This document shows, piece by piece, positions 4,020-46,751 of a stretch of DNA of 64,000 nucleotides. The stretch comes from Nitrososphaeraceae archaeon. GTDB taxonomy: Archaea > Thermoproteota > Nitrososphaeria > Nitrososphaerales > Nitrososphaeraceae. Each line of letters starts with the position of its first letter. Position 1 is the stretch's first letter. A program made the translations under genes and the position numbers. Where the stretch lies: positions 32,001 through 96,000 of the forward strand of contig DATFEP010000064.1 in assembly GCA_035250975.1 (NCBI GenBank). The letters are read 5' to 3'. The notes beneath the pieces are model-generated. The model saw nothing but the letters and a program-made list of their open reading frames with translations, searched no databases and had not been told where the DNA came from.

Positions 4020-4475
4020 ATGGATAAATTTACAAAGATACTAGCGCCAATTGATGGGTCAAAACCTTCTATGGATGCTGCAAATTATGCCCTATCACTC
4101 GCAAATAAATTTTCCTCCGAATTATATATCGTATCAGTAGTACCGTCTAAGGTAAAATATGGAGATTCTTCTGGTTTTTTCGGTATGGTTCCTCCTAAAT
4201 ACTTTGATAAATATAAAAAGGAAGCTGAAATATGGTTTGATGAAGTAAAAAAACGATTAGAAGACAGTGAAATTAAAAATATAAAGATAAATACAGAAGT
4301 AATAACAAGTCCACTTTCCATTTCTGGCACTATTTTGGAATATGCCGAAAATTTGAACATAGATCTTATCGTTACGGGAACCAAAGGCAAAACAGGATTC
4401 AAAAAATTATTAATCGGAAGTACCGCACAAGAAATAGTAACTTATGCACATTGCCCAGTATTAGTAGTTAGATAA
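4020..4475 (+). CDS. Universal stress protein (USP)
   Basis: KILAPIDGSKPS, GTKGKTG-x-LIGSTA, YAHCPVLVVR. Confidence 0.92.
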   Translation: MDKFTKILAPIDGSKPSMDAANYALSLANKFSSELYIVSVVPSKVKYGDSSGFFGMVPPKYFDKYKKEAEIWFDEVKKRLEDSEIKNIKINTEVITSPLSISGTILEYAENLNIDLIVTGTKGKTGFKKLLIGSTAQEIVTYAHCPVLVVR

Positions 4476-13701: not shown

Positions 13702-14976
13702 TTGTTTTCACGCAGATTCCGTAATCTGGGACCTGGGATTATTACAGGTGCTGCAGATGATGATCCATCTGGAATAGCAACTTATTCCCAAGCAGGAGCT
13801 CAATTTGGACTTGGTTTAGCTTGGACTCCTATTTTCTTCCTTCCATTGTTATTTGCCATCCAGGAAATATGTGCTAGGATAGGTTTGGTTTCCGGTACTG
13901 GTATTATTTCATTAATGAAAAAAAAGTATCCTAAAAAACTGATTTATCCATTAATATCTTTGCTAGCTATCGCAAATACCATTAATCTAGGTGCAGATTT
14001 AAATGCTATAGGAGCTTCGGCAAATCTCATCATACCCGGGATTCCCATATTTTTCTATACTTTATTTTTTACGTTGTTTATTTTGATTACTGAAATTTTT
14101 GTTTCCTATATACGGTATGTTAGAATTCTAAAGTATCTTACATTATCTTTACTATGTTATTTTATAACAGCTATTATTGTTGGAGGTAATTGGAATCAAA
14201 TCTTTCTGTCTACCATTACTCCCAATATCGAATTTAATAAAGAATTCATAATGATGTTTGTGGCATTATGCGGGACAACTTTATCTCCATATCTTTTCTT
14301 TTGGCAAACCTCTGAAGAAGCAGAAGAAGATGTAGTCCATAAAAAAATAAAAGAAATAGGCAAAGGAAAACCAAAAATTTCCAAGCAAGATATCAAAGCA
14401 ATGAGAAAGGATATCTTTGTGGGAATGGCATTTTCAGTTTTTATTATGTGGTCAATTATAGTTACTGCTGCAGGTAGTCTTAACCTTCATGGGATAACAA
14501 ATATTCAAACTGCGGATCAAGCAGCACAGGCGTTAGAACCCCTAGTCCAAACGTTTCCTAATTCCGGGTTTATTGCGAAAATCATATTTGCAATAGGAAT
14601 AATCGGGACTGGATTATTAGCTATACCTGTTTTAGCAAGTTCCACGGCGTATGCTTTTTCGGATACATTTGGGTGGACAGAAGGATTAAGTAAGAAGTTT
14701 AAGCAAGCAAAATCATTCTATCTTACCATTGTAATTTCTACAATTATTGGCTTGTTTTTTAATTTCAGTGGAATTGAGCCAATAAAAGCATTAATATATG
14801 CTGCTATAATAAATGGAGTAATTTCTATTCCTATACTAGTCATCATAATGAAAATTTCAAATGATAAAAAATTACTTGGTCAAAATGTAAATGGAAAAAT
14901 TTCTAATACTATTGGTGTCTTAACAATGGTTATAATGACAATTCCAGTTATTTTTATGATATTAACATCAATTTAA
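13702..14976 (+). CDS. NRAMP-family divalent metal transporter (NRMT-like)
   Basis: LGPGIITGAADDDPSG, QEICAR, GTTLSPY, about 11 TM segments. Confidence 0.88.
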   Translation: MFSRRFRNLGPGIITGAADDDPSGIATYSQAGAQFGLGLAWTPIFFLPLLFAIQEICARIGLVSGTGIISLMKKKYPKKLIYPLISLLAIANTINLGADLNAIGASANLIIPGIPIFFYTLFFTLFILITEIFVSYIRYVRILKYLTLSLLCYFITAIIVGGNWNQIFLSTITPNIEFNKEFIMMFVALCGTTLSPYLFFWQTSEEAEEDVVHKKIKEIGKGKPKISKQDIKAMRKDIFVGMAFSVFIMWSIIVTAAGSLNLHGITNIQTADQAAQALEPLVQTFPNSGFIAKIIFAIGIIGTGLLAIPVLASSTAYAFSDTFGWTEGLSKKFKQAKSFYLTIVISTIIGLFFNFSGIEPIKALIYAAIINGVISIPILVIIMKISNDKKLLGQNVNGKISNTIGVLTMVIMTIPVIFMILTSI

Positions 14977-16765: not shown

Positions 16766-19294
16766 TTACATTTTTACCCATTTATAAAAGAGCCACTTTG
16801 TTACTTCAGCCATAAGTACATACGCTAATACAATTATTCCTATACTAAGATAGAAAGTTAAAGGGATAACAACAAATCCAAATATTGAACCAACAGGAGT
16901 AAGAGGAATAGCAAGAACAAAAATATTAACTATTAAAGTTGTAATTAACAAAAATTTTCCAGGAGTACTTTTCATTAATGGTTTTTTACTTCTGATAATT
17001 AAAACTACAAGTGAAGCCGAAATAACGGATTCCATAAACCATGTAGTTCTAAATTGTTCTATGTTTGCGTGTAAAATATTTAGTAGTACAATAAAGGTCA
17101 GAAAATCAAAAAGAGTACTTAAAAAACCAAATACCAGCATGAATTTACGAATAAATTTAAGATCCCAATGCCTGGGAACTTCTAATATTTCCTTGTCTAC
17201 ATTATCTGTCGATATTGTCATTTCTGGAAAGTCTGTCATCAAGTTGGTAAGAAGTATCTGTTTTGGCAAAAGTGGAAGGAATGTCAGAAATAACGATACA
17301 CCAGCCATACTAAACATATTTCCAAAATTAGCACTTGTTGCCATGAAAACATACTTCATTGTATTTGCAAAGGTTCTACGTCCTTCCATTATCCCATCTA
17401 TGAGAACGCTAATATCTTTTTCAAGCAAAACAATATCTGCTGTCTCTTTAAGAACGTCTGTGGATTTATCAACAGAGATTCCTACGTCTGCTGAATGAAT
17501 CGCTGCTGCATCATTTACTCCATCGCCTAGATAACCTACTATATTTCCAGATTTCCTTAATGCCAAGATTATTTGTTCCTTTTGAGCAGGTTCAATTTCT
17601 GCGAAGATGTTCACTTTTCTCACTTTTCTTGTTAGTGACTCGGGCGTCATATGAGAGATCTCTGAGCCTGTCAAGATTTCAGATTTGGATATTAGACCGA
17701 TCTGTTTACCTAAGTGAGATGTGACATAAAGATTGTCTCCACTAATTATTTTGAGTGAAACTTTTAATTTTTTAAGTTTTTTTATAGATTCTACTATCCC
17801 TGGTTTTATTGGATCAAAAAATACTAGAAATCCCAAAAAAATCATGTCTCTTTCATAATCTTTGTTGATTATTGAAATATCCACATCATTACGATATGCT
17901 AGACCAAGTATTCGAAGACCTTGTAAACTTAACTCCTCAAATTGTTTTTGCAATGAGTCTTTAAGAACAGCTAATTCTATTATTTTTTCACCAGTCACTT
18001 CTGCTTTAGAACATATATCGAGAATATTTTTTACAGCACCTTTTGTTATCATTATATTCTCGTTATTTTTGTAAGATACCAAAACACTTATTCGCTTACG
18101 AACAAAGTCATAAGGAATCTCATCTAACTTCTTATATGCGGATAAATCGAATTGTTTGGAACTTCTTATTGCATCATCAATTGGATTAATAAAACCACTT
18201 TCAAACGTCGAATTGAGATAGGCATAAAAAAGAACTTTGTTATTTACTCTTCCTTCTGTATCTAGAGCAAATTTAAGTTTAATATTTCCTTCGGTCAAAG
18301 TACCTGTCTTATCAGAACATAATATGTTCATGCTTCCAAGATTTTCTATAGATGCTAATTTTTTTACAATTACCTTTTTTAAACCCATTCGTTTTGCACC
18401 ATGAGACAGATTAATACTAATGATTGCAGGAAGAAGTTGTGGAGTCAGACCTATAGACAAGGCAAGGGCAAAAAGAAAAGAATCCAATACAGGACGTTCA
18501 AAGTACACATTAATCAAGAAAATGAATGAAACCAAAATGATCGTAACTTCAACCAGAAGAAAACTAAATTTTCTTACCCCTTGTTCGAATTCGGTTTCAG
18601 GAGGCTTTGTTTTGATGTGTTGAGAAAGTTTACCTATTTCAGATCTTTTGCCAGTATTTACAACTACTGCTTTTACAATCCCGCTAACAATATGTGTATC
18701 CATAAAAATACAATTTGTTCTTTCATGTAATGGTGTTTCTAGAGGTAATATTTCTTGTGACTTTTCAACTGGATAACTTTCCCCCGTAAGTGTTGACTCG
18801 TTAACAAAAAGATCTTTAGATTCAACGATAATGCAATCTGCGGGTATCCCACTCCCTGCGTTAAGAACAACCAAATCTCCAGGTACAATTTGTCTAGTAG
18901 AGATACTTAGTTCTTTTCCATCTCGTATTACACTCGTCTTTAATTGTACCATTTCTAATAATTTTTTTATTATATTTGATGCTCTTCTTTCTTGTAAAAA
19001 TGCAAGAATAGTACTTATGAATAAAATAATGAAAATTATTATCGCATCGTTAAAATTTCCAAGAAATAATGATAAACCTGTAGCAAATATTAGTAATAAG
19101 ATGATAGAATTTTTAAATTGACACAATAACAAACGAAATGTCCCCGTCTTATTATTAGAATCAATGATATTTGGACCGTATATTTCTAGTCTAGACTGGG
19201 CCTCTCCTGAACTCAATCCATTACTACCAGTTTGAAGGTTGTCAAAAATCTCGTTTGTTGCTAAAGACCAGAATTTGTCTTCTATTTTATGCAT
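16766..19294 (-). CDS. mgtA: Magnesium-translocating P-type ATPase (type IIIB)
   Basis: TGES, PQLLP, DKTGTLT, NPIDDA, YDFVRKR, KGAV, GDGVND, SANFGNMFS, WFMES. Confidence 0.9.
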   Translation of the reverse strand: MHKIEDKFWSLATNEIFDNLQTGSNGLSSGEAQSRLEIYGPNIIDSNNKTGTFRLLLCQFKNSIILLLIFATGLSLFLGNFNDAIIIFIILFISTILAFLQERRASNIIKKLLEMVQLKTSVIRDGKELSISTRQIVPGDLVVLNAGSGIPADCIIVESKDLFVNESTLTGESYPVEKSQEILPLETPLHERTNCIFMDTHIVSGIVKAVVVNTGKRSEIGKLSQHIKTKPPETEFEQGVRKFSFLLVEVTIILVSFIFLINVYFERPVLDSFLFALALSIGLTPQLLPAIISINLSHGAKRMGLKKVIVKKLASIENLGSMNILCSDKTGTLTEGNIKLKFALDTEGRVNNKVLFYAYLNSTFESGFINPIDDAIRSSKQFDLSAYKKLDEIPYDFVRKRISVLVSYKNNENIMITKGAVKNILDICSKAEVTGEKIIELAVLKDSLQKQFEELSLQGLRILGLAYRNDVDISIINKDYERDMIFLGFLVFFDPIKPGIVESIKKLKKLKVSLKIISGDNLYVTSHLGKQIGLISKSEILTGSEISHMTPESLTRKVRKVNIFAEIEPAQKEQIILALRKSGNIVGYLGDGVNDAAAIHSADVGISVDKSTDVLKETADIVLLEKDISVLIDGIMEGRRTFANTMKYVFMATSANFGNMFSMAGVSLFLTFLPLLPKQILLTNLMTDFPEMTISTDNVDKEILEVPRHWDLKFIRKFMLVFGFLSTLFDFLTFIVLLNILHANIEQFRTTWFMESVISASLVVLIIRSKKPLMKSTPGKFLLITTLIVNIFVLAIPLTPVGSIFGFVVIPLTFYLSIGIIVLAYVLMAEVTKWLFYKWVKM

Positions 19295-19577: not shown

Positions 19578-20042
19578 TTGTCTCGTGAAAATAATGGATT
19601 TAAGAGGATACTTGTTCTAGTAGATGGATCAAAATATTCGATAAATGCATTGGAATATGCTAGTATCCTATCTAAAGAATATGATTCTGAATTAATAGCA
19701 TTATACGTTGTACCATCCATAATGAGATATGATGATCTGTTTTTAAGTAAGAGAAAATACGAGGAGATCCCTGGATTCAAAGACATAATTGAACTGTCAT
19801 ACTTAGAATCTCATAATTGGTTAAATGAATTAAAGGAAAAAATTGGTGGAAAACTAACAACCGACGTCATTATTGCTAAGAAATCTGTTGTTTCTGAAAT
19901 ATTAGAATATTCAGAACGCAATGATATAGATTTAATAATTATGGGTACAAGAGGAAAAACAGGTTTGAAAAAATTACTGTTGGGAAGTACAGCAGAAGGG
20001 GTTATAACTTATGCACATTGTCCTGTATTAGTAGTTAGATAA
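19578..20042 (+). CDS. Universal stress protein (USP)
   Basis: RILVLVDGSKYS, GTRGKTGLKKLLLGSTA, YAHCPVLVVR; TTG start. Confidence 0.9.
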   Translation: MSRENNGFKRILVLVDGSKYSINALEYASILSKEYDSELIALYVVPSIMRYDDLFLSKRKYEEIPGFKDIIELSYLESHNWLNELKEKIGGKLTTDVIIAKKSVVSEILEYSERNDIDLIIMGTRGKTGLKKLLLGSTAEGVITYAHCPVLVVR

Positions 20043-25086: not shown

Positions 25087-27375
25087 GTGATAATAAATTT
25101 AAATAACTTGAGAATATCTATTTCTGGAACAATACAAGGTGTAGGTTTTAGACCTTTTATCTATAGAATTGCAAATGAATCTCATCTTTACGGGTATATA
25201 CAGAATAAAGGAGATGGGATCGTAGAGATCTGCGTTCAAGGAAGCCAGAAAAATATTGAACTTTTCATAAGAAAAATGAAAAATGAGAAACCCGTCCTTG
25301 CACATTATGATCATATTGATATCATGGATCTTGATGAGAAAAAAAAATACAATGATTTTACCATAATTGATAGTTCCAAAACAAGATCAAAAACAGGTTC
25401 TTCAATCCACCCGGATATTTCAATATGTAAAAAGTGTACGATAGATTTTTATCAAAATAAAAGGAGATATCAGTATCCATTCATCTCATGTACCGAATGT
25501 GGGCCAAAATTTACGACATTAAAAATGTATCCTTACGACAGAACAAATACAACAATGTCAGATTTTGCAATGTGTAAAGAATGCGAATCTGAATATAATG
25601 AACCAAAGAATAGATTATTTCATTATGAACTAATATCCTGTACGGAATGTGGACCAAAATTTTCTATTGTAGATAACAAAGGTCATATTATCAATACCAA
25701 TGATCCCGTATCACTTTCAGCGAAATTGCTTATGGAAGGAAATATAATGGCTGTAAAGGGTCTTGGAGGTTTTCACGTCATAACATCATCCACAAAGTCC
25801 GAACCGATAATGAAATTGCGAAATAAAAAAGACAGAAAAAATAAACCTTTTGCGATCATGGGCAAAGATGTTCAATCCATAAAATCGTTTGCCTGCGTAA
25901 ACGATTTAGAAGAAAAAATATTAACTTCCATGACAAAACCTATTGTTCTATTAGACAAGAGTAACAATTATTTTCTTTCTCCTTTCATTTCACCGAATCT
26001 CCACAATGTTGGAGTTATGCTTCCTTATATGGGGTTACATATAATGTTATTCGAATCCATCGAAGAACCTGCTTTGGTTATGACCAGTGGAAACGAAAGT
26101 GGTAATCCGATAATAAAAGATAACAAAGAAGCTATAAAATCTCTAGGACATTATGTAGATTATTTTTTGATTCACAATAGAGAAATATTTTCGCGATGTG
26201 ATGACTCGATAATTAAAGTCATAGAAGATAACCCTATACTATTAAGAAGATCCAGAGGATTCGTTCCATCAAAGATCTCTTTTACAAAAAGTATTCCAGA
26301 TTGTATTCTAGCACTTGGTGGAGAAATGAACGTAGTATTCTGTATATTATATAATGAAGACTGTTTCATTTCACAACATATTGGAGACCTTTATAATCCA
26401 GATTCTTATTTATTTTTTAAGAGTACAATTGAACAAATGATGAAATTTCTAGATTTGAAACCGTCTTTTTTAGCATGTGATTTACATCCTTCTATGTTAA
26501 CGACGAACTTGGCTTATAATATTGCTCAGAATGAATCTAACGTCTTTCAAGTACAACACCATCACTCCCATATAGCCTCTCTAATGTCAGAACACAACAT
26601 ACAAGATATTATAGGAGTGGTGTGTGATGGAATTGGATATGGTTTAGATGGAAATCTATGGGGTGGGGAAATATTCAAATGCGAAAATGTAACAAACATT
26701 CAACGAATTGGACATTTAATTGAGCAACCCATGATAGGAGGAGATTTGGCGACACTAAACCCCTTAAGAATGGTCGCCGGAATACTATATGGCAAGGTTG
26801 ATGGTTTTGAAGATTTCCTATATTCAAATTTAACACGGTTCCGGTATGGACATAAAGAAATAGAATCCATCATTGGCAATCTGCAATCTGATTCATATTC
26901 CAAAACTACCAGTACGGGCAGGATACTTGATGCAATATCATCTCTACTTGGGATTTGTTATGATAGAACTTATGAAGGAGAGCCTGCAATATCACTAGAA
27001 TCAAGTTCAATAAATGGCAAAGATATTTTCATTGATCCAAAAATATCAGGAAATATTTTGGATACTACATATTTACTAAAATTTATATACGAAAACAGAG
27101 GTAGGCTTTCTCCAAGGGATCTCGGTTATTCTGCCCATTCCTATCTCGCAAATGGTTTAGGAGAAATTGCTGCAGAAAATGCACTGTCTACGGGTATCAA
27201 AGTTGTTGGGTTTTCAGGAGGAGTTGCACATAATAGAATTTTTACAAAAATCCTAAAAGAAGAGATTGAGAAGAGGGGGTTGAGGTTTCTACTACACCAA
27301 AAAATTCCACCTGGAGATGGAGGAATTTCTGTAGGTCAAGCTTATTATACTATGAATAAAATTCTAAATAGCTGA
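25087..27375 (+). CDS. hypF: Carbamoyltransferase HypF
   Basis: QGVGFRP acylphosphatase domain, two CxxC-x18-CxxC fingers, KGLGGFH, QHHHSH, DGIGYG, PGDGG. Confidence 0.96.
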   Translation: MIINLNNLRISISGTIQGVGFRPFIYRIANESHLYGYIQNKGDGIVEICVQGSQKNIELFIRKMKNEKPVLAHYDHIDIMDLDEKKKYNDFTIIDSSKTRSKTGSSIHPDISICKKCTIDFYQNKRRYQYPFISCTECGPKFTTLKMYPYDRTNTTMSDFAMCKECESEYNEPKNRLFHYELISCTECGPKFSIVDNKGHIINTNDPVSLSAKLLMEGNIMAVKGLGGFHVITSSTKSEPIMKLRNKKDRKNKPFAIMGKDVQSIKSFACVNDLEEKILTSMTKPIVLLDKSNNYFLSPFISPNLHNVGVMLPYMGLHIMLFESIEEPALVMTSGNESGNPIIKDNKEAIKSLGHYVDYFLIHNREIFSRCDDSIIKVIEDNPILLRRSRGFVPSKISFTKSIPDCILALGGEMNVVFCILYNEDCFISQHIGDLYNPDSYLFFKSTIEQMMKFLDLKPSFLACDLHPSMLTTNLAYNIAQNESNVFQVQHHHSHIASLMSEHNIQDIIGVVCDGIGYGLDGNLWGGEIFKCENVTNIQRIGHLIEQPMIGGDLATLNPLRMVAGILYGKVDGFEDFLYSNLTRFRYGHKEIESIIGNLQSDSYSKTTSTGRILDAISSLLGICYDRTYEGEPAISLESSSINGKDIFIDPKISGNILDTTYLLKFIYENRGRLSPRDLGYSAHSYLANGLGEIAAENALSTGIKVVGFSGGVAHNRIFTKILKEEIEKRGLRFLLHQKIPPGDGGISVGQAYYTMNKILNS

Positions 27376-27429
27376 TTTTTTATTATCTATAATCTTTATA
27401 GGCTAGATTTTCCTATCAATTCCAGGCTT

Positions 27430-27744
27430 ATGTGTTTGGCTTTTCCAGGCAAGATAACTGAAATAATAGGAGATTTTGCCAAGATAGATTTTGGTGGAGG
27501 TACTATGAGAAATAATATTAATATTTCCTACGTTGATGGTCAAGTGGGAGATTATGTTCTTATTCATGCAGGGTATGCAATCCAAGTATTGGACCTGGTT
27601 GAGGCCGAAAATATATTGAAATACTGGGTCGACAATACATCTTGGAAGTGTAACCAGTGTGAAATAATAAATGAATGTTACACCGGAAATTTGGTTAAAG
27701 AAGTAAAACAGATTAAACATAATAACTTGGGTTCGGAATCATGA
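27430..27744 (+). CDS. hypC: Hydrogenase maturation chaperone HypC with Cys-rich C-terminal extension
   Basis: MCLAFPG, GDYVLIHAGYA; extra WKCNQCEIINEC tail. Confidence 0.93.
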   Translation: MCLAFPGKITEIIGDFAKIDFGGGTMRNNINISYVDGQVGDYVLIHAGYAIQVLDLVEAENILKYWVDNTSWKCNQCEIINECYTGNLVKEVKQIKHNNLGSES

Positions 27745-28850
27745 TTCTAGAAAAGTACAAAGATCCCGAATTAGCAAAGAATATTACTGAAAAGATCCGT
27801 GAATATGCCGATTCGATAGAAGAGAACCTGCTTTTTATGCATGTTTGTGGATCTCATGAATGGACGATATCTCACTATGGCATAAGGTCGCTGATCCCTA
27901 AAAATATAGAGATAAGACCTGGACCTGGCTGTCCTGTTTGTATTACTCCAGCTGAGGATATAGACAATGCCATAAAGCTCGGTTTAGAAGGAAAAACCAT
28001 TTTAGTATATGGAGATATGTCAAGGTCGAAGGGATCAAAAGGAAAAAGCCTTTTAGATATAAGGGTACTTGGTGCTAAAATCAAGATAGTATACAGCATA
28101 CAGGAAGCCATATTATTAGCAAGAAATGACCCAACAGAAGACTTCGTCTTTTTCGGAGTAGGATTTGATACCACTGCCCCTCCTACTGCATTTGAGATAT
28201 TGAAAGGTTTACCACCGAATCTTGCTATCATTAATTCATATAGATATATGCCTCCAATAGTGGGTGCAGTTATAAAATCGTCTGTACTGGGTGTGGATGC
28301 CGTATTAAATCCGGGACATTCATCTACAATAACTGGAATGAAACCTTATTACAGATATTTTCTAGAAACTAGAAAACCTCAAGTCTTTTGTGGATTTGAA
28401 CCTATTGACATTTTATTGGGAATTCTAATTCTGTTAAAACAGATAAAAGATGGAAAGGCGAAACTAGAAAATGAATATCAAAGGTCAGTCACATGGGAAG
28501 GAAATAAACATGCTCAGAAAAAACTTGAAGATGTATTTGACCTAGACACAGGTTACATAAGAGGAGTAGCAAGTATTCCAGAATGCGGTTTTACGTTTAA
28601 GGAAAAATATAAGGATGTTGATGCATATGTCAAATATGGTTTATCAAGGCAAACAAATAATGAACATTTTGTAGCAGGAGCTCGATGTGGTGAAGTGATT
28701 TTAGGTCTTTGTGAACCTACTGAATGTCCGCTATATATGAAAGAATGTACTAAACAGACACCTAAAGGGCCTACGATGATTTCTCTTGAAGGCACATGTA
28801 GAATATGGGCTGAACATAATCTGATTAAATCTATAAAAAAACTTTCTTAA
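27741..28850 (+). CDS. hypD: Hydrogenase maturation protein HypD
   Basis: CGSHE, GPGCPVC, GFDTT, PGH, GFEP, C-terminal Cys cluster; ATGA overlap with hypC. Confidence 0.95.
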   Translation: MILEKYKDPELAKNITEKIREYADSIEENLLFMHVCGSHEWTISHYGIRSLIPKNIEIRPGPGCPVCITPAEDIDNAIKLGLEGKTILVYGDMSRSKGSKGKSLLDIRVLGAKIKIVYSIQEAILLARNDPTEDFVFFGVGFDTTAPPTAFEILKGLPPNLAIINSYRYMPPIVGAVIKSSVLGVDAVLNPGHSSTITGMKPYYRYFLETRKPQVFCGFEPIDILLGILILLKQIKDGKAKLENEYQRSVTWEGNKHAQKKLEDVFDLDTGYIRGVASIPECGFTFKEKYKDVDAYVKYGLSRQTNNEHFVAGARCGEVILGLCEPTECPLYMKECTKQTPKGPTMISLEGTCRIWAEHNLIKSIKKLS

Positions 28851-28869
28851 TATTCAATATTGATCTTTT

Positions 28870-29652
28870 ATGGCTTTTTTTATAGGAAATAGTTTTTGTA
28901 AACTTTGTCAAAAGGATGAAGAACAACTTGTAAGTGAATTATTTTACTGTACAAAGGGACTAATTAATAAGGGTTATTCGATAATTAAAAATACACTAAA
29001 TAGTGCACGACTCCCAAGTTGTGACGACTTTTATGTAACATATTTTAAAAATAATATATGGAATTCAGATATCAAAGTACTAAAAATAAATATAAAAGAT
29101 TGTTGTAATAATCATGAACAACCCACAAACGGTGTTGAAGTTGATAAAGGCGAAATTTTGCTACATACGAAAATATATCAAGCTCGTCCGGATGTCAATG
29201 CTATTTGTCATACAAGAAATCCATATTCGATAATTTTAGACAATGATACTTTTAAAAGAGTACATGGAGAAGCTACATTGATCTTAGGCGACATTCCTAT
29301 CATGGATATTGAAAATTTTTCTGATGAAAATAGAACGGTGAGCTTCATAGAAAAAATAGTTCAATCAACTATAGGCGAACCCCTAAGGCCTATAAGAACC
29401 GTAATATTATCAAACAATAGTGTTTTGGCTCTTGGTTCCTGCATACATGAAGCAAGAGCATTTACAGAAATACTGGAAGAATGTGCCAGATTTTACATGA
29501 TATCTAAAATTTTTGGCGGACCGCTAAATCTGCTTACACTTGATCAATTGAGAGGTTTGGGATCGAGATATGCAAGAGCCATAAAATTTGGAGGAAGGAA
29601 AATAATGTCTAATGCGAATCGTCCAGATGTTCGGATTAATAAAAATTTTTGA
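28870..29652 (+). CDS. Class II aldolase/adducin-like protein, probably metal-site-degenerate
   Basis: E...HTKIYQARPDVNAICHTRNPY; NNS in place of NHG; N-terminal CKLC. Confidence 0.75.
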   Translation: MAFFIGNSFCKLCQKDEEQLVSELFYCTKGLINKGYSIIKNTLNSARLPSCDDFYVTYFKNNIWNSDIKVLKINIKDCCNNHEQPTNGVEVDKGEILLHTKIYQARPDVNAICHTRNPYSIILDNDTFKRVHGEATLILGDIPIMDIENFSDENRTVSFIEKIVQSTIGEPLRPIRTVILSNNSVLALGSCIHEARAFTEILEECARFYMISKIFGGPLNLLTLDQLRGLGSRYARAIKFGGRKIMSNANRPDVRINKNF

Positions 29653-30056
29653 AAATGATGCTAAAAAAAATTCTAGTTTTTGGTAATCCTTTGGTTAGAA
29701 GGGACAGCCTGCCTCTAAAATTATTAGATGATCTTAGAAATGAATTTCCTAACATAGAATTCAAAGAATTTGATTCAATTGAAGAGATACAAAATGAAGG
29801 GGATACTCTTTACATTTTGGATTCGGTAGAAAAAATAAAAAAAGTGATGGTAATAACCGATTTAGATCAATTGGCTACAGACAAAATATATTCGGTCCAT
29901 GATTTTGATTTAGCTATCAACCTCAAGATACTAAAGAAAATAGGTGTGATAAAAAAGATAATTATTCTTGGAGTGCCTATGAATATTACGCATAGTCAGG
30001 CATTACAAGAGATTAGAGAAAAAATTATATCCATTTCAATCTCAAAAAATGACTAG
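29649..30056 (+). CDS. Divergent hydrogenase maturation protease-like protein
   Basis: ILVFGNPLVRRD, ILDS, SVHD match HycI/HybD-type motifs; short (about 133 aa). Confidence 0.75.
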   Translation: MKMMLKKILVFGNPLVRRDSLPLKLLDDLRNEFPNIEFKEFDSIEEIQNEGDTLYILDSVEKIKKVMVITDLDQLATDKIYSVHDFDLAINLKILKKIGVIKKIIILGVPMNITHSQALQEIREKIISISISKND

Positions 30057-31302
30057 CACAACTCATACACGGATCGTATGCCCTTATTATTTTTTCAAGC
30101 TCATGATAAATAAAGTGTTTATCTTTGTCTAAAATGCTAGGTAAATGATTTTTTATATCATTTTCCATCTTAATTTGATTTTGTGCTGTTGGTATTACAA
30201 AGTTGGCAAATTGTACTTTTCCTTCTCTGTTAAGTTCAACCATATGATACAATGTACCACGAGGAGCCTCTATTACTCCAACTCCTTTACCTTCTCTTGT
30301 TTTAATTTCGGGAGGAGATTCGCGAGTAAATTCATTTTCTTCAAGAATTTGAATAGTATGATCTATACAATGTAGAATTTCAATAGATTGTGCAAGATTG
30401 TTATGATAAATATTATTTGATGGAAAGACTTTAAGGATTTCAGATATATCCTTTTTTGAATTTTTATGGATAGATTCTCTATTCAAATTTAACCTAGCCA
30501 AAGCTCCTACCATGTATTCTTTGTCCCTGAATCTAAATCCAGTAGCCTGAGAATACGGGATAATAATTCTTTCTAGGTGATTCCAATATTCATCTTCTTT
30601 TATTTTCATTCCGTCTGAAGAAGCGATCTCACCCTCCAAAAAACTAAAATCGTCTGTAACTAGAGATACGAAAGTGGATTCTCTGCTAAGGTCAAAATTG
30701 CATTCATAAAATATTTTTATGAGTTCAAGAACCGTATCTCTAGTTGCTTTAAATTCTGACAATAATTCTTTTAAATTTTCTTTTGAAGGTAAATGAGAAA
30801 ACTGTCCAACCTTTTCAAATGTTGGATGAACAGCCCTGCCAGCAACTATTTTCGAAAGATTGTTTCCAAGACTTTTTACATTGAAACCCTGTTTGATTAG
30901 ATAATTTTTTGTTTCATCAAAATCAAATACAGAATCTGTATTAAAAACATCAGGAAGACAGAAGAAGTACAAATGTAAAGCATGATCCCGTATCATCATT
31001 CCATATACAGATAACTTTCTTAATAATTCAGTTTGTTTTGTTGGTGTGATCTCGAGACATTTTTCGATTGATTCAATGCTACAGGTTAAGTGTGCTATGC
31101 TACATGTACCGCATATCCTAGAAACAAATTGTGGAACACTAGAAAAATGTCTATTTCTTACTGCTTGTGTATAAAATCTTTTATTTTCATTTATCTTTAA
31201 TTTGACATCTTCTACTTTTCCCTTCCTAATTTTTACTTCAATGTCTGCATGACCTTCTGTTTTACTTATTTGTTCTATATTGATATCGAAACTATCATGC
31301 AT
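30025..31302 (-). CDS. [NiFe]-hydrogenase large subunit, group 3b-related
   Basis: TEGH, L1 RICGTCSIAH, EAPRG, PTAQN, L2 YDPCMSCASH plus a 7-aa cleavable tail. Confidence 0.93.
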   Translation of the reverse strand: MHDSFDINIEQISKTEGHADIEVKIRKGKVEDVKLKINENKRFYTQAVRNRHFSSVPQFVSRICGTCSIAHLTCSIESIEKCLEITPTKQTELLRKLSVYGMMIRDHALHLYFFCLPDVFNTDSVFDFDETKNYLIKQGFNVKSLGNNLSKIVAGRAVHPTFEKVGQFSHLPSKENLKELLSEFKATRDTVLELIKIFYECNFDLSRESTFVSLVTDDFSFLEGEIASSDGMKIKEDEYWNHLERIIIPYSQATGFRFRDKEYMVGALARLNLNRESIHKNSKKDISEILKVFPSNNIYHNNLAQSIEILHCIDHTIQILEENEFTRESPPEIKTREGKGVGVIEAPRGTLYHMVELNREGKVQFANFVIPTAQNQIKMENDIKNHLPSILDKDKHFIYHELEKIIRAYDPCMSCASHFLRLKWI

Positions 31303-31774
31303 TTACAAGACCAAATTCCTTCATATAACCATCTAATTTTGATAGAAATAATTTTTCATCCATTGGACATCCCGAAATGAAATCATCAACATTTACAAAT
31401 TCCGAAATAGGAGATACCTTGTTTCTTTGTCCAAACTGCTCTAAAATATGGAAAATCTCATTTTTTGTCGAATCATCAAAGTAATTTCTTTGATTCGCTG
31501 GGCTTCCTGTACATGCACAACTTCCTATTGCAATTAATTTTTTTGAATTCTTCCTTATTTCTTTAAGAAATTCAAGCTCTTTGTCAGTTGAAATTGCTCC
31601 TTCTACAAAAGCCAAATCTAAATTAGTAAAATCGTTTTTTCCTTTGAAAGTTCTAAAATATTTAAAATCCAGTAGATCTTTCCACTTTAAAAAATTATCA
31701 TTCATTAATTCTATGAACACTATAGTACTGTCTTCGCAACATGTAAATGAAAACCAGCCAGTTTTGAGTTTCAT
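31295..31774 (-). CDS. Truncated [NiFe]-hydrogenase small subunit (NuoB/delta-like domain only)
   Basis: WFSFTCCEDS, VEGAI, IGSCAC, SGCP; 159 aa from ATG 31774; overlaps the large-subunit start. Confidence 0.88.
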   Translation of the reverse strand: MKLKTGWFSFTCCEDSTIVFIELMNDNFLKWKDLLDFKYFRTFKGKNDFTNLDLAFVEGAISTDKELEFLKEIRKNSKKLIAIGSCACTGSPANQRNYFDDSTKNEIFHILEQFGQRNKVSPISEFVNVDDFISGCPMDEKLFLSKLDGYMKEFGLVNA

Positions 31775-31998
31775 TAACACATTAGCAATAAAGCTATCGT
31801 ATTTAAAATAGTTCACCTTTTTGATTCCCAATTTTCATTTTAACATATTTGTTTTAGAAAATTGTGTTGCGACATTTTATTATTTAATTTACGTTAGTTA
31901 TCTTATTAAATTCTAAAAATCGATCATCTTAAATCTTGTTAACAAAAAATTATCTTTTTACAAAGAAATTTGAAAGAGTTCTAAATACTATAACTATA

Positions 31999-33054
31999 AT
32001 GGAAAAAAAGAGAATAAGTCTAGCACACGGAGCAGGTGGTGTGCTTATGAATAACCTGATTAAAAACCAAATCTTGAAATACTTTAGTTTAAACCATCAT
32101 GAAGTTTCCTTAAATGCTCTAGACGATGCGGGTATAACTGAAGGCATTGTTTTTACTACAGATTCTTATACAGTAAAACCGCTTTTTTTTCCTGGAGGTA
32201 ATATAGGTGTAATGTCTGTTGCGGGAACCGTAAACGATATTGCAGTAATGGGTGGAAAACCCTTAGTGCTATCATGTAGTATGATAATTGAAGAAGGCTT
32301 CTCAATTGAGGAGTTAGACCTAATTATAAAAAGCATTCAAGAAACATGCATTCAAGCTGACGTGGATATAATTACAGGAGACACCAAAGTTCTAGAAAGA
32401 AATGCGTTGGACAAACTAATTATTAATACTTCTGCTGTTGGTAAAAAAAGTCAATACTTAGAAAAAAATCTAAAGATTGTAAAAAGATACAACCCCAACT
32501 TTAATTCTGATTGGTTACTTGATTCAAATATTGAGAAGGGGCACAAAATAATAATTTCAGGAACACTAGGTGATCATGGGGTTGCGATAATGTCTGCAAG
32601 AAATGAATATGGTTTGGAGAGTCAAGTAGAATCAGATGTTGCACCATTAAATAATTTGATTCAAAAAGGGCTTGATGTCGGAGGCGTAGTAAGCATAAAG
32701 GATCCCACGCGTGGAGGACTTGCAAATCTTCTAAATGAATGGTCTGAGAAATCAAAAACTGGTTTTATAATTCTTGAAAAAGATATTCCCGTTAAAGAAA
32801 GCGTGAGAAGTGCATTAGGATTTCTTGGACTTGATGTATTAGAAATAGGAAATGAAGGAAAAATTTGCCTAGCGGTAATACCGGAAAAAGCAGAAGAAAT
32901 ACTAGGTATCTTGAGAGAAACACCAGAAGGTAAGGATGCGATGATAATTGGAGAGGCAACAGACGAATTTGATTTACCTATCCTGGAAACTCAGATAGGC
33001 GGTAGAAGAATCCTTGCAAAACCTGCAGCAGATCCTATTCCCAGAATATGCTAG
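31999..33054 (+). CDS. hypE: Carbamoyl dehydratase HypE
   Basis: HGAGG, TTDSY, GTVND, GDTKV, KDPTRGG, NEGK, C-terminal PRIC. Confidence 0.96.
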   Translation: MEKKRISLAHGAGGVLMNNLIKNQILKYFSLNHHEVSLNALDDAGITEGIVFTTDSYTVKPLFFPGGNIGVMSVAGTVNDIAVMGGKPLVLSCSMIIEEGFSIEELDLIIKSIQETCIQADVDIITGDTKVLERNALDKLIINTSAVGKKSQYLEKNLKIVKRYNPNFNSDWLLDSNIEKGHKIIISGTLGDHGVAIMSARNEYGLESQVESDVAPLNNLIQKGLDVGGVVSIKDPTRGGLANLLNEWSEKSKTGFIILEKDIPVKESVRSALGFLGLDVLEIGNEGKICLAVIPEKAEEILGILRETPEGKDAMIIGEATDEFDLPILETQIGGRRILAKPAADPIPRIC

Positions 33055-33333
33055 GTGATATCGTTGTTTAGAGGAGTAGAAGATCGTGTCAACAAAAAAT
33101 TAATTTGTAAAGTTTGCGGATATATTGAATATAATTTTCCAAAACATCACGAAATGCCTATGAGATGGATTACAACCGGTAGTTTTAATAAAGAAGAACT
33201 TTTGAAATGTCAAAAATGTGACTATACAATACCGATCTTAATACATTGTAATGTGTCAATGTTTTATTCTGAAGGGGATTATCTTGATTTACCTGAATTT
33301 ACAAAAAAAGATTATCAGGATATAGACAAATAA
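33055..33333 (+). CDS. Small tandem Cys/His metal-binding protein
   Basis: CKVC...HHEMPM and CQKC...HCNVSM repeats; GTG start directly after the hypE stop. Confidence 0.65.
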   Translation: MISLFRGVEDRVNKKLICKVCGYIEYNFPKHHEMPMRWITTGSFNKEELLKCQKCDYTIPILIHCNVSMFYSEGDYLDLPEFTKKDYQDIDK

Positions 33334-33334
33334 A

Positions 33335-33709
33335 GTGATTATGTTGTCATTTTTCTGGCATTTAAAATTTGCTATTTTTATGTTTGAGATCGCTAAATCT
33401 GAATTGAATAAAAATAATTATGTAGTAGCTAATGCTGTCATTAAAACTTTTACAGAGATAATAGATGCCTATTTATCGAAGGCGAATAATCTTATTGATG
33501 AAGCAAGTTTAGAGGGATGGAAAGAAAGAATCCATTGGATGAGTGAAAATAATCATGAATTATTAAATGAATGGAAAATGGTGAATTCTCTTTGTTTTGA
33601 GATGATGAATCAGGGAAAATACTACAACAACGTTGCAATAAAATTAATAGAAATAGTTCAAAATAGACTAAATAAGATTGGATCAGATGATTACGGGGAT
33701 TACTTTTAA
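33335..33709 (+). CDS. Hypothetical helical protein
   Basis: 124-aa ORF starting 1 nt after the previous stop. Confidence 0.5.
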   Translation: MIMLSFFWHLKFAIFMFEIAKSELNKNNYVVANAVIKTFTEIIDAYLSKANNLIDEASLEGWKERIHWMSENNHELLNEWKMVNSLCFEMMNQGKYYNNVAIKLIEIVQNRLNKIGSDDYGDYF

Positions 33710-33719
33710 TTTGATTGAT

Positions 33720-34373
33720 CTAATTCGTCAACTTTTTAACCACTAGGCATTTTGCCCACTCTTCGCATAAATCAACTACAAATTTTGCTTCATGAATGCA
33801 TCTGCCCACACCTATAACTCCATGGTTCAATAATATTATTAATCCAAACGGAACTACACAATCAAATTTACTTGCCTTACCCACGAGATTTCCTAATCCC
33901 TTAGACCCGAGTTGTTTGTACTCAACTATCAAGGGTTTATCATGTAATACTTTTGGAAAAGCGATGGATGGTGTTCCTGCTAATGTCCATATACCTTCAT
34001 TGTCTATATTTACTAGTTTAGAAGACAGAAAATATCCTGAGGTATAGGGATTATGAACGTGACATACTGCATTAATATCTGATCTGTTTTTATATATTTC
34101 AGTGTGAAAAGGAACTTCGATAGTTGGTTTAAGGTTTCCCTTCAAAACATTTCCATCCAAGTCGATTAACAATAGATCGTCTGAAGTTATATGTGATCTT
34201 GGATATCCAGATGGAGTGATCCAAATTTGATTATCTAATTTTGAACGAAAACTATGGTTTCCACCACCAACCGAAACCAACCCATGGGAAAAAAAATACT
34301 TTATAGCAGATATTAATTCATTTTTAAACATATGTTCGTCATATACTTTACAAATATCACAAAACATCTTCAT
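33720..34373 (-). CDS. Class II aldolase/adducin-family protein with intact metal site
   Basis: GGNHS, ITPSG, PTIE...H, CHVHNPY, LLNHG; N-terminal CDIC. Confidence 0.88.
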   Translation of the reverse strand: MKMFCDICKVYDEHMFKNELISAIKYFFSHGLVSVGGGNHSFRSKLDNQIWITPSGYPRSHITSDDLLLIDLDGNVLKGNLKPTIEVPFHTEIYKNRSDINAVCHVHNPYTSGYFLSSKLVNIDNEGIWTLAGTPSIAFPKVLHDKPLIVEYKQLGSKGLGNLVGKASKFDCVVPFGLIILLNHGVIGVGRCIHEAKFVVDLCEEWAKCLVVKKLTN

Positions 34374-35346: not shown

Positions 35347-35515
35347 AGATGGTTTATACCATCGATAGAAACCAATATCTCTCTAGACTTATATTTAAAA
35401 TGAATTCATCTTATTGTACTTTCTCAGTGTAATTGAATACCGTAATTAGTACATTTACTCTTAATTAGTTATTTTAACCTATAGCTTGTGTAATTCAAAA
35501 CTACGAGGCATTGAA

Positions 35516-36556
35516 ATGATTAATAATAAAAATAAAATAAATCAAATTTTTATTTCATCTATCGTTGTTTTGATTGTGTTGATATCGACATTTTATATTT
35601 TTACTATCTTGCTTTCGTGGAATAGTTATAATATAGACGTTTTTGGTATCGAAAACAAATCTGATAAAAATAAGGAAAATAAAACATTAGAACAGCATGC
35701 AACTATTGCTTTTGGAGAATACAACTTTATTGCGGTAGGTGACTATTACTGTAACAAAGAAACAGAAAAAACTATACAAAAAATACTATCAATAAATCCA
35801 GAAGTGGTTATCACAACAGGAGACCATGTAAAAAAAGTAAAATCTGCAGATTGTTGGAAAAAAATGTCTCAGCCACTTAAAGATAAAATGAGAATAGCAA
35901 TTGGTAATCATGATGCAGAATATTCTAACATCTATAAAGAGATTATAGATTATCATAATATAAAAAGTCCTTTTTATTCACATGACTTTGAAAATATCCA
36001 TTTCATAAGCATGTCCACAGAGCATGCTTTTGAAGAAGGAAGCAAACAATATGAATTTGTTAAGAGTGATCTAGAGAAAACATCAAAGAATCCAAATATC
36101 GACTGGCTAATAATCCATCAACATAAATCACTGTATTCTACAAAACAGGACAAAGATTTGGCGAAAGAGCTAAGGCAAACGTATCATAAACTCTTTCAAG
36201 AATATGGTGTAGACATGGTAATTTCAGGTCATAATCAGTATTATGAAAGAACATATCCAATTCTATATAATGCCAATGAAGAATTAATAAATAATAAATC
36301 AGGTAGTCCAAAACCGATAGTCGCAGTAAATGACAAAGCTGAATATCCACCAACTAATGGCATAATATTTTTAACTGTAGGAACAGGTGGAGATAAACTA
36401 GATAAAGTCAAGGAAAATCATGGTTATTACGTAATTCAGGAAAGTGAGTATGGTTTCTTAAATGTTAAAATAGAAAATAACGGTAAGAAACTTGTAGGAG
36501 AATTTTACACAAATAAAGGAGATGTTATAGACAGTTTTATATTAAATAAAATATAA
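35516..36556 (+). CDS. Membrane-anchored calcineurin-like metallophosphoesterase
   Basis: N-terminal TM, VGD, TGD, GNHD, HQH, GHNQYYER. Confidence 0.85.
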   Translation: MINNKNKINQIFISSIVVLIVLISTFYIFTILLSWNSYNIDVFGIENKSDKNKENKTLEQHATIAFGEYNFIAVGDYYCNKETEKTIQKILSINPEVVITTGDHVKKVKSADCWKKMSQPLKDKMRIAIGNHDAEYSNIYKEIIDYHNIKSPFYSHDFENIHFISMSTEHAFEEGSKQYEFVKSDLEKTSKNPNIDWLIIHQHKSLYSTKQDKDLAKELRQTYHKLFQEYGVDMVISGHNQYYERTYPILYNANEELINNKSGSPKPIVAVNDKAEYPPTNGIIFLTVGTGGDKLDKVKENHGYYVIQESEYGFLNVKIENNGKKLVGEFYTNKGDVIDSFILNKI

Positions 36557-45278: not shown

Positions 45279-46751
45279 ATGTCAACTACAAGTCATCAAG
45301 GTCTTAATGTAACATCAGAACAATTAAAGAAAAAAATGGAAACAGAAGAACCATTAATAATTTTTGATATAGGAGATTTTCAAAGATATCAGTCAAAACA
45401 CATCCCTGGATCTAGTTTTGCTTCCTGTGATGAAGAGTCTAAGAGAAATATAATGCCACGGTTGCCAAAAGATATCGAGATTGTTTTGGTAGGTGACACG
45501 GATGAATATCCAAAAGAAATGGCCAAAACCATGAATTCGATGGGATTAAAAGCAAAATATCTTGAAGGAGGTTTGCAATCTTGGAAATGGGAAATGTCAA
45601 AATCGGAAGAAAAGAACTTGACACCACAAGACCTAAAAAAAATCCTCGATGAGAATACTACTGATACTACAAGAGGTAAGGAAATAATACTTTTAGATGT
45701 AAGGCAACCCCATGAATTTGAAAGTTGGCATATTGAAAACAGTCATAATATACCCCTGGAGAAAATTACATCATCTCTAAATTCTTTTGATAAAAAAAGA
45801 GAGATAGTTACAATTTGTCCAAGGGGAAATAAAGCGATGGTAGCAAAAGCGATTCTACAAAGATATGGATTTACAGCAAGGGCATTGGCTGGCGGTTTAA
45901 GTGCATGGACATCTGCGATTGAAAATCCTTCTACTGAATTTGAAATTATAGATAAAAATGGAAACAAAAAAATGGTAAAAGTTGTTCAAATAAGAAGAAT
46001 AGGAAAGGGATGTTTATCTTATTTTTTATCATTTAAAGACGAGTCCATTGTTATAGATCCTGCATTCCCAGTAGAAAATTATACAGAACTTGCTAAGACA
46101 AGTGAATCGAAAATTATCAAGATTTTTGACACCCATCAACACGCAGATCACATATCTGCAGGAAAATCATTGGCTGATAAAACAGGAGCAGAGTATTATG
46201 TCAGCGATCTAGAGGAATATTCTCAAGAAAGCATGGGATCAAATATTAAGAAGATAAAGCAAGGTGATATTGAAAAGATAGACGAGATAGAAATTAAAAT
46301 ATTAAACACCCCTGGACACACAAATGGTAGTCTCTGTTTTCTAGTAGGTTCAAAACTTTTGTTTACAGGAGATACTCTCTTTGTTGATGGAATAGGTAGA
46401 CCCGATCTTAGAGATAAAGCAGTTGAATATTCAAAATTGCTCTATAACACTCTGCATAACAAGGTCTTGACTTTGGATGAAAATATAGTTGTACTTCCGG
46501 CTCATACACAAAAAAGTATTACTTCAAAAATTTTATTATCAGGATTTTTGAAAGATATAAAAAATAATAATAAAGACTTATTTTTGTTAGGTGAAAAAGA
46601 ATTTGTAGATACTATTGCGTCACTAACAATACCTACTCCCCCCTCGTACAAAGATATAATAGCTATAAATAAATATTTCAAGGCAAAAGATATGGATATT
46701 AGCAAGATTAATGAATTAGAATTTGGTCCTAACAGATGCATTATTAAATGA
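45279..46751 (+). CDS. Rhodanese-rhodanese-metallo-beta-lactamase fusion (persulfide dioxygenase-like)
   Basis: HIPGS, LEGG, LDVR, CPRGN, GCLSY, THQHADH, PGHT, GDTLF, GRPDL, PNRC. Confidence 0.88.
   Translation: MSTTSHQGLNVTSEQLKKKMETEEPLIIFDIGDFQRYQSKHIPGSSFASCDEESKRNIMPRLPKDIEIVLVGDTDEYPKEMAKTMNSMGLKAKYLEGGLQSWKWEMSKSEEKNLTPQDLKKILDENTTDTTRGKEIILLDVRQPHEFESWHIENSHNIPLEKITSSLNSFDKKREIVTICPRGNKAMVAKAILQRYGFTARALAGGLSAWTSAIENPSTEFEIIDKNGNKKMVKVVQIRRIGKGCLSYFLSFKDESIVIDPAFPVENYTELAKTSESKIIKIFDTHQHADHISAGKSLADKTGAEYYVSDLEEYSQESMGSNIKKIKQGDIEKIDEIEIKILNTPGHTNGSLCFLVGSKLLFTGDTLFVDGIGRPDLRDKAVEYSKLLYNTLHNKVLTLDENIVVLPAHTQKSITSKILLSGFLKDIKNNNKDLFLLGEKEFVDTIASLTIPTPPSYKDIIAINKYFKAKDMDISKINELEFGPNRCIIK

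Follow-up and report, generated by a model that had tools for sequence, protein, structure and literature searches.

The archaeal DNA considered here raises the question of what kind of [NiFe]-hydrogenase an ammonia oxidizer could encode with only two structural proteins, and of where such an enzyme would have come from. The window, a stretch of 64,000 nucleotides, corresponds to C15:32001-96000, that is, to part of one contig of the 2,488,707-bp draft assembly of a Nitrososphaeraceae archaeon (GCA_035250975.1), and the locus studied occupies positions 25087-34373 of the window. The assembly comprises 91 contigs, with a completeness of 94.64%, an estimated contamination of 2.62% and a GC content of about 0.30. 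It encodes an archaeal amoA (394 bits), which places the host in a nitrifier lineage, as an earlier note on this DNA had presumed, and the public loci nearest to that of the window come from named Nitrososphaeraceae metagenome-assembled genomes. It is probable that the locus encodes a cytosolic two-protein [NiFe]-hydrogenase of the type called 'hyd2', whose small subunit would be a NuoB-like domain with a single cluster, and that a DPANN-like structural module is combined here with a retained thermoproteotal set of hyp maturation genes.

The genes that the earlier note had recognized were all found again. An intact large subunit and a 159-aa small subunit are encoded on the minus strand, flanked on the plus strand by hypF, hypC and hypD on one side and by hypE on the other, and these hyp genes are all intact, with profile scores above the cut-offs for hypF, hypD and hypE. 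That inventory was incomplete, since a HycI-like protease, two aldolase-like genes (Ald1 and Ald2) and two small conserved open reading frames (ORFs) after hypE (orf92 and orf124) had been overlooked (Table 1).

Regarding the large subunit, the two motifs RICGTCSIAH (residues 62-71) and DPCMSCASH (residues 410-418) hold the expected CxxC pairs, C64/C67 and C412/C415, and a tail of seven residues follows His418. The top NCBIfam models were ShyA (269.1 bits, cut-off 700) and HydA (210.1 bits, cut-off 880), with VhuA and FrhA scoring lower, and the best PDB match was 5yxy, the HyhL of Thermococcales, at 194 bits, the SH-I alpha subunit being matched as well. The relationship to group 3b proposed earlier was thus upheld.

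The small subunit departs further from the standard enzyme. It aligns solely to residues 2-148 of the 256-aa SH-I delta subunit, and alignment with the 255-299-aa delta subunits of other Nitrososphaeria revealed that the C-terminal segment of about 100 aa, which bears eight cysteines, is missing. Instead of a delta subunit of about 250 aa with proximal, medial and distal clusters, a protein of 159 aa is found, with cysteines at positions 12, 13, 86, 88 and 136. In the usual CxxC the second cysteine has been substituted, and two adjacent cysteines (CC) occur, a tandem reminiscent of the N2 cluster of complex I. C86 and C136 alone are invariant throughout the clade; the cluster site reads CC + C(xC) + C in ammonia-oxidizing archaea (AOA) and most DPANN, a single Cys + CxC + C in some bacteria of the candidate phyla radiation (CPR), and a GDEGC variant in locus L055. 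The length of 156-163 aa among relatives speaks for the 159-aa form, and a 178-aa version from an alternative TTG start at 31831 was unsupported.

Among enzymes of known structure, the Thermococcales group 3b hydrogenases SH-I and SH-II (PDB 9e1j, 9nez and 9e15, with the T. kodakarensis HyhL, 5yxy) gave the top sequence matches for both subunits and share with the predicted enzyme a cytosolic nature, the same L1 and L2 motifs and a cleaved C-terminal extension. However, they are built of four subunits, including an Fe-S beta, a FAD- and NAD(P)-binding gamma and a delta of 256-266 aa, whereas only two are encoded here and the C-terminal cluster domain of delta is missing. The HoxY-type small subunits of group 3d and related enzymes are also short and occur among the PDB matches (5xf9 chain C, 189 aa; 7t2r chain E, 179 aa), and subunits of this type presumably carry the proximal cluster only. 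Their similarity is weaker, at 33 and 31 bits versus 61.6 bits for the SH-I delta, and they dock on NADH-linked modules of the same operon, whereas no such module is found in this genome.

The earlier note had regarded this enzyme as a stripped-down one. For the present genome the description holds, as no beta or gamma subunit was found genome-wide and the part of the small subunit that would connect to them is lost, but the type itself is already in print. In the part of the article available to this analysis, Jaffe and colleagues (2020; BMC Biol 18:69, PMC7304191) described in CPR bacteria a 3b-related 'hyd2' on a long branch, with a small subunit of 164 aa on average, no beta or gamma subunit nearby and an uncertain function. 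The locus of the window shares with that type the truncated small subunit (159 aa here, about 164 aa there), the lack of an adjacent diaphorase and the long branch from standard 3b enzymes, and CPR sequences with short small subunits fall into the same clade of the trees. It differs in its AOA host and in its complete hypF, hypC, hypD and hypE set with accessory genes, whereas CPR loci often have DUF6390 and a short HypC instead.

A phylogeny of the large subunit, which had been suggested as a check, placed it within the clade of enzymes with short small subunits. Tree 1 comprised 65 large subunits (IQ-TREE, LG+C20, quick search) and was rooted on six VhuA-like sequences; L075, L076 and L078 were left out as duplicates of the window or of L014/L015, and L048 denotes a short-small-subunit 'uncultured archaeon'. 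In this tree, 44 sequences with short small subunits formed one clade with a support of 100 in the SH-like approximate likelihood ratio test (SH-aLRT) and a branch length of 1.17, and within it the 14 AOA sequences were monophyletic (99) and nested among Aenigmatarchaeota (95, 96). Tree 2, with 50 rows and six standard 3b enzymes as outgroup, agreed with it (supports 99, 94 and 94). The large subunit grouped (SH-aLRT 100) with 18 CPR or other bacterial large subunits accompanied by short small subunits, in a comparison without author-labelled hyd2 sequences. Judged by its sequence, then, the enzyme is probably a member of the 3b-related truncated-small-subunit clade called 'hyd2' in CPR, and not a new kind.

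The same gene arrangement recurs elsewhere. Among 46 related loci of species-representative genomes, a small subunit of about 160 aa and a large subunit of about 425 aa occur together with a protease gene on the reverse strand, and this triad shows identities of 68-96% within Nitrososphaeraceae, 50-66% for Aenigmatarchaeota and other DPANN, and 44-53% for Patescibacteria and a few other bacterial bins. The neighbours, scanned for 16 of these loci, are varied and include CorA, Nramp, DUF6390, one Pyr_redox_2 protein, ferric-reductase-like membrane proteins and a pyruvate:ferredoxin oxidoreductase beta subunit. DUF6390, a frequent CPR neighbour, had no match in the present genome, in a search whose control also matched nothing.

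It could be argued that an ordinary four-subunit 3b enzyme is present after all, with its beta and gamma subunits elsewhere in the genome or in the unassembled 5%, and the question of hidden subunits was left open for CPR in the part of the article by Jaffe et al. (PMC7304191) that was available. The assembly does have real gaps, and genome-wide absences have to be read against a draft of 91 contigs that is 94.6% complete and in which NuoB is cut at two contig starts. Nevertheless, the HydBGDA/ShyBCDA architecture was found neither in the window nor in the assembly, which contains a single PF00374 locus: the beta-subunit family PF17179 (Fer4_22) had no match across the assembly, and the sole match of PF10418 is PyrK, next to PyrD. 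Additionally, the small subunit is without the whole domain of the medial and distal clusters, and Pfam detected no beta or gamma subunit when 63 neighbouring ORFs, taken from 16 of the 46 related loci, were scanned. A hidden standard tetramer is consequently very improbable. As for the truncated NuoB, contigs C40 and C41 open with an identical C-terminal fragment (C40:15-101 and C41:15-101), a sign of either duplication of the complex I locus or its collapse at contig ends.

Within Nitrososphaeraceae, the large subunit was detected in 17 of 238 species genomes, the source genome counted, in 12 of the 116 of high quality and in 4 of 18 genera; in the source genus, 9 of 24 other genomes carry it. 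These tallies include genomes flagged as unpublished (G089-G092, G132, G162, G163, G216, G217 and G234), all of them without hydrogenase. In other Nitrososphaeria families, sampled among 401 genomes of the class, the 3b-type large subunits are only 29-34% identical and the small subunits measure 240-299 aa. A literature search that did not cover supplementary tables found nothing on this enzyme type in Nitrososphaeraceae. The available part of a 2023 review (PMC10432482) names no AOA hydrogenases other than the four-subunit 3b enzyme of the thermophilic Nitrosocaldus and Ehr complexes without catalytic function, and a 2024 paper, likewise in its available part, describes Nitrosomirales as being without hydrogenases.

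This distribution bears on whether the locus might be a decaying or non-catalytic relic, or a sensor. The trait is patchy, one family genome has stop codons in its large subunit, and a nickel chaperone and transporter were not found, all of which would suit such a relic. On the other hand, all 11 genes of the locus are intact, with the Ni-Fe ligands and the HypC, HypD and HypE motifs kept, and among the 14 AOA large subunits identity is 70-96% and the active-site motifs do not vary. Retention of a dedicated protease and of three accessory genes is moreover confined to genomes with the hydrogenase, and a nickel-urease accessory set is present in the genome, so that nickel is handled by this organism. 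A relic or a sensor is therefore improbable.

The origin of the locus appears to be composite. The genes were compared with those of DPANN loci and of f3, a family which the named protein matches suggest to be Nitrosocaldaceae. The small and large subunits are 43-67% identical to DPANN versus 27-34% to f3, and the HycI-like protease is 43-61% identical to DPANN and without a match in f3; the closest relatives of this structural module are Aenigmatarchaeota. For the maturation genes the affinity is with f3, at 59-60% for HypE, 47% for HypF and 52-57% for the long HypC, the DPANN loci being without hyp genes, and f3 HypD fragments are 66-68% identical to the HypD of the window. Outside the family, HypD is nearest to Nitrosocaldaceae/Nitrosocaldus (67-69%) and then to Sulfolobales (Acidianus and Sulfolobus, 57-59%), with no DPANN among these nearest relatives. 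The four-subunit 3b enzyme of 'Ca. Nitrosocaldus' thus resembles the present system in belonging to the same archaeal order, in its related hyp genes (HypD 66-69%, HypE 59-60%) and in the hypE-orf92-orf124 triad, but its structural subunits are only 27-34% identical, and Nitrosocaldaceae-like loci, unlike that of the window, have small subunits of 255-299 aa, upstream genes of beta/gamma size and a short MHE-type HypA.

On the simplest reading, an ancestral four-subunit 3b enzyme would have given way to a module of three structural genes derived from a DPANN-like donor, with the native maturation genes left in place. An ancestor within Nitrososphaeraceae would have acquired the small subunit, large subunit and protease together, and would have kept the thermoproteotal set of hypF, hypC, hypD and hypE-orf92-orf124, which elsewhere serves the four-subunit 3b enzyme. 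The reverse transfer, or an enzyme ancestral in Nitrososphaeria that DPANN and CPR took up, has in its favour that the nesting supports (SH-aLRT 94-96) come from quick searches and that the full hyp set is found only in AOA. HypD was not found in any of five DPANN/CPR carriers, G560-G564 (loci L025, L029, L055, L041 and L036), by the window protein or by PF01924, in genomes whose completeness is unknown. However, the AOA sequences make up a single shallow clade within a DPANN/CPR radiation that is deep and diverse, with either the VhuA-like or the standard-3b outgroup, only 4 of 18 family genera carry the enzyme, and the other Nitrososphaeria families have the long-small-subunit type, so that a transfer out of Nitrososphaeria is unlikely.

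The DPANN affinity of the large subunit, whose nearest relatives outside the family belong to that group, together with a contamination estimate of 2.6%, could also suggest that the contig is a binning or assembly contaminant. This is hardly conceivable, since the locus lies in a 104-kb contig whose GC content of 0.315 matches the genome and which also encodes plastocyanins, multicopper oxidases and NDH-2. It is furthermore present in 17 species-level family genomes, once on a 1.8-Mb contig, and its hyp genes are nearest to Nitrosocaldaceae.

The two small ORFs following hypE are strictly linked to the enzyme within the family: orf92 was found in 16 and orf124 in 15 of the 17 hydrogenase-bearing genomes, and neither in any of the 221 others, the carriers without some accessory genes being G190 and G199 (in both of which the locus is cut by a contig end) and G228 (78% complete, with stop codons in its large subunit). 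In orf92, C18, C21, C52, C55, H31, H32, H64 and C65 are invariant, and the protein models as a zinc ribbon (predicted local distance difference test, pLDDT, 71); for its fold, Foldseek returned nothing at E<=0.001, the wide VIA search reached a best Z of 3.3 with HypA unlisted, and Atlas gave weak leads only. Its profile matched 20 proteins at E<=0.001 among 1.84 billion representatives, the named ones coming from a Nitrosocaldaceae metagenome-assembled genome, Saccharolobus/Sulfolobus islandicus, S. shibatae, Acidianus copahuensis and Metallosphaera yellowstonensis, which are the same taxa as those of HypD's nearest relatives. A literature search on orf92-type genes in Sulfolobales, with supplementary tables not covered, found nothing. 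The model of orf124 is a five-helix bundle (pLDDT 88) whose top matches are HEPN-domain chains (Foldseek TM 0.6-0.7, VIA Z 11-12.9), below the bar set for helical bundles. As for the Rx4-6H motif, R65 is invariant and no conserved histidine follows it; Atlas yielded no usable match.

In f3, the orf92 homolog follows hypE in 4 of 4 genomes and the orf124 homolog comes next in 3 of 4 loci, with the gene order short HypA - HypC - HypE - orf92 - orf124 - HypC - HypD. The retention of hypE-orf92-orf124 in Nitrosocaldaceae-like genomes indicates an old thermoproteotal hyp cluster that includes orf92 and orf124, and both may be regarded as candidate maturation factors rather than hyd2-specific redox partners. 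A different role for orf92, as a rubredoxin-like electron acceptor of the enzyme, was also considered. It has two CxxC knuckles 34 residues apart and co-occurs strictly with the hydrogenase, its CKVCGY motif is one that we take to resemble rubredoxin, and there are weak language-model leads to desulforedoxin/rubredoxin-like clusters (0.80-0.84) and a VIA match to desulforedoxin at Z 2.4. Against such a role, orf92 also comes after hypE in Nitrosocaldaceae-like genomes, where the hydrogenase is equipped with beta/gamma wiring of its own, is present in Sulfolobales, is absent near the DPANN/CPR hyd2 loci, and has no match to the Pfam rubredoxin family, which makes an acceptor function quite doubtful.

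Regarding the protease, its gene is convergent with that of the large subunit, with an overlap of 32 nt, and it adjoins the large subunit in AOA, DPANN and CPR loci alike. Its own PF01750 score is under the cut-off of 23 bits (Table 1), and 15 of 17 relatives match that family at E<=0.1, the best at 6.7e-6. Residues G12, N13, D19, D58, H84 and D87 are invariant, and D19, D58 and H84 presumably correspond to the metal ligands (acidic, Asp, His) of HycI/HybD. A search of the family profile against the PDB found no solved HycI. As for the aldolase-like proteins, only residues 86-234 of Ald1 align to solved aldolases, and HTR stands in place of the HxH motif; its orthologs occur in 14 of the 17 hydrogenase-bearing family genomes and in none of the 221 others. 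Ald2 keeps the GGNxS motif, a Glu and the HVH motif and looks catalytically complete; it adjoins orf124 in nine related loci and was placed beside the orf92/orf124 coordinates in 14 hydrogenase-bearing genomes.

The earlier note had also drawn attention to the lack of hypA, hypB and a nickel transporter in the window, and these absences extend to the whole assembly as far as HypA, HypB and NicO are concerned. For HypA, PF01155 gave nothing above cut-off in the assembly, and the short HypA of standard-3b genomes had no tblastn match here; HypA was above cut-off in 6 of 6 standard-3b genomes of the order versus 0 of 4 related hyd2-type family genomes. TIGR00073 matched best to UreG, a member of a ureD-G-F cluster, at 78 bits against a cut-off of 121, so that HypB of this family is missing, although ATPase-type HypB was not searched for. 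This absence is true but not special, since HypB was above cut-off in none of ten other Nitrososphaerales genomes, among them the six with a standard 3b enzyme. NicO had no match in the assembly, and the window contains an Nramp gene (13702-14976) and a P-type ATPase gene (16766-19294), but no recognised nickel transporter. The Nitrosocaldaceae-like HypA proteins (L096:13699-13983, L064:594-863 and L066:3340-3603) measure 87-94 aa and have an N-terminal MHE, no cysteine and no zinc ribbon; in clusters with such a HypA, a separate Cys4 protein, the orf92 homolog, comes after hypE.

Taking these components together, the large subunit would receive its Fe(CN)2CO centre from HypC, HypD, HypE and HypF and then nickel, after which it would be trimmed behind His418 by the HycI-like protease. 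H2 would be split or made at the Ni-Fe site, and electrons would pass via the single cluster straight to a separately encoded soluble partner. This partner may possibly be a flavoprotein, either thioredoxin-reductase-like (TrxR-like) or FNR-like, with ferredoxin as the alternative; the flavoprotein is favoured because the small-subunit domain is fused to one in 32 of 34 longer relatives. Among these 34 proteins, 24 have an N-terminal Pyr_redox_2 (TrxR-like) domain and eight FNR-like FAD_binding_6/NAD_binding_1 domains, while of the other two one carries an intein and one has the small-subunit domain at its N-terminus with no other annotated domain. In the intein-bearing relative, P0121 (548 aa), the intein (PF14528, PF14890) follows about 20 residues of the small-subunit domain. 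Six of the fused flavoproteins were aligned, and they have kept the CxxC motif and lost the HRRxxxR NADPH motif. An FNR-like gene lies on contig C81 of the present assembly.

An HRR-less TrxR-like gene, C10:5262-6200 (L100; CTKC and YRGGKL), was tried as the specific partner and rejected. Its orthologs are intact in relatives (324-330 aa) and equally common without hydrogenase, as in genus g11, where 28 of 34 genomes have the gene and none the hydrogenase.

In an aerobic nitrifier, the enzyme could serve as a redox valve or as an auxiliary supply of reductant under oxygen limitation, and H2 metabolism may accordingly be part of this organism's repertoire. A wider and frankly speculative proposal, of low probability, is that some mesophilic soil AOA use a minimal hydrogenase of DPANN descent to connect H2, independently of NAD(P), to a flavoprotein/thiol or ferredoxin pool, either to live on hydrogen through hypoxia or as a redox valve under such conditions. 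Maturation would then follow a Thermoproteota-specific pathway, with the Cys4 and HEPN-like proteins replacing HypA/HypB and with Ald1/Ald2 supplying or processing a ligand precursor such as that of CO.

Regarding expression, contigs of sequencing runs were placed on the stretch at >=90% likeness. Almost the whole stretch was present in only one run, possibly the source sample itself, and 13 soil or other DNA runs contained 0.33-0.46 of its sampled words. In library X19, from soil and recorded as RNA, seven short contigs matched hypD, hypE and the two subunits, one of those on the large subunit having 1 mismatch in 164 nt, and in the oligo-dT RNA library X20 one identical 185-nt contig fell on the large subunit. 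Libraries X15 and X16 may be DNA, and parts of the stretch uncovered in X19 and X20 are uninformative. These matches give a weak hint of transcription in relatives.

Several observations weigh against the interpretation of the locus as a working, DPANN-derived hyd2 enzyme. The large subunit scores far under every curated equivalog cut-off (269 versus 700 bits), and no hyd2-type enzyme had been assayed according to the available part of Jaffe et al. (2020; PMC7304191). The presence in just 17 of 238 genomes and the two stop codons in the large subunit of carrier G228 indicate that the enzyme is dispensable. HypA, HypB and NicO were all unfound, which leaves nickel delivery unexplained. No electron partner was identified: the two intact TrxR genes of the assembly (on C80 and C12) carry both motifs and are of the ordinary NADPH type, and the HRR-less gene on C10 is disrupted by a TGA and two frame changes. 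Both trees come from quick searches, and which way the transfer went hinges on the root. The RNA evidence, finally, consists of short contigs in two libraries in which DNA carry-over is possible.

The coordinates of the 11 genes are given in Table 1. HypF contains the acylphosphatase, zf-HYPF, Sua5 and Kae1-like domains recognized by Pfam and four CxxC motifs, and the N-terminus of HypC reads MCLAFPG. In HypE, whose C-terminus is PRIC, the profile aligns from residue 26 and relatives measure 350-353 aa, which makes 31999 the likely start; for orf92 (33064) and orf124 (33341), the later starts were likewise chosen from relatives.

Table 1. Genes of the hydrogenase locus, with positions in the window, strand and the evidence for each assignment
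Gene or product	Length (aa)	Positions	Strand	Evidence and remarks
hypF, carbamoyltransferase	762	25087..27375	+	TIGR00143 793 bits (cut-off 466.1)
hypC, chaperone with Cys-rich C-terminal extension	104	27430..27744	+	PF01455 E 1.1e-20
hypD	369	27741..28850	+	TIGR00075 370 bits (cut-off 192.8); GPGCPVC motif
Ald1, degenerate class-II-aldolase-like protein	260	28870..29652	+	PF00596 E 1.5e-15
Putative divergent HycI-type maturation endopeptidase	135	29649..30056	+	PF01750 E 0.0079, 16.5 bits
[NiFe]-hydrogenase large subunit, hyd2-type / 3b-related	425	30025..31302	-	PF00374 above cut-off
Truncated small subunit, predicted single [4Fe-4S] site	159	31295..31774	-	PF01058
hypE	351	31999..33054	+	TIGR02124 359 bits (cut-off 251.6); from Met22 of ORF opening at 31936
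orf92, Cys4 zinc-ribbon protein	89	33064..33333	+	Invariant Cys/His; from conserved Met (ORF 33055-33333)
orf124, five-helix HEPN-like protein		33341..33709	+	Structure model (ORF 33335-33709)
Ald2, class II aldolase/adducin-family enzyme	217	33720..34373	-	PF00596 E 4.2e-34; convergent with orf124

Regarding the remainder of the window, three universal-stress-protein genes (3996-4475, 10571-11047 and 19578-20042) and at least five CBS-domain genes were observed, together with metal- and redox-related genes, namely, besides the Nramp and P-type ATPase genes already mentioned, VIT1, ferritin, a class-I Pyr_redox_2 protein (11148-12548), NDH-2 (55697-57655) and a rhodanese-MBL fusion (45279-46751). 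The surroundings of the hydrogenase thus have the character of a stress and redox region. Two overlapping plus-strand ORFs (61786-62700 and 62667-63179, covering PF00171 positions 9-301 and 305-461) make up an aldehyde dehydrogenase that is split through a frameshift or an assembly error, and an IS240-type DDE transposase is encoded at 59482-60147 on the minus strand, about 25 kb downstream of the hydrogenase locus. The metallophosphatase at 35486-36556 on the plus strand is one of a heavily expanded set of paralogs, six congeners each having 9-27 matches. As to the borders of the locus, the CoA-transferase flank was found in one of six hydrogenase-free congeners and the metallophosphatase flank is many-copied, so that no clean empty site could be defined.

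What is new in this system is the presence of the hyd2 clade in ammonia oxidizers, the mosaic locus and the three hydrogenase-linked extra genes Ald1, orf92 and orf124. The mosaic suggests that a foreign structural module can run on native maturation genes, and the hypE-orf92-orf124 triad flags two unstudied candidate maturation factors with relatives in the genetically tractable Sulfolobales. The hyd2 clade gains a host with a complete set for Fe(CN)2CO assembly, which would provide the most convincing genomic case that its members are true [NiFe] hydrogenases and would make this host a better starting point for hyd2 expression and biochemistry. An intact catalytic-type hydrogenase in the main soil AOA family would, finally, add H2 to the possible metabolism of nitrifiers.

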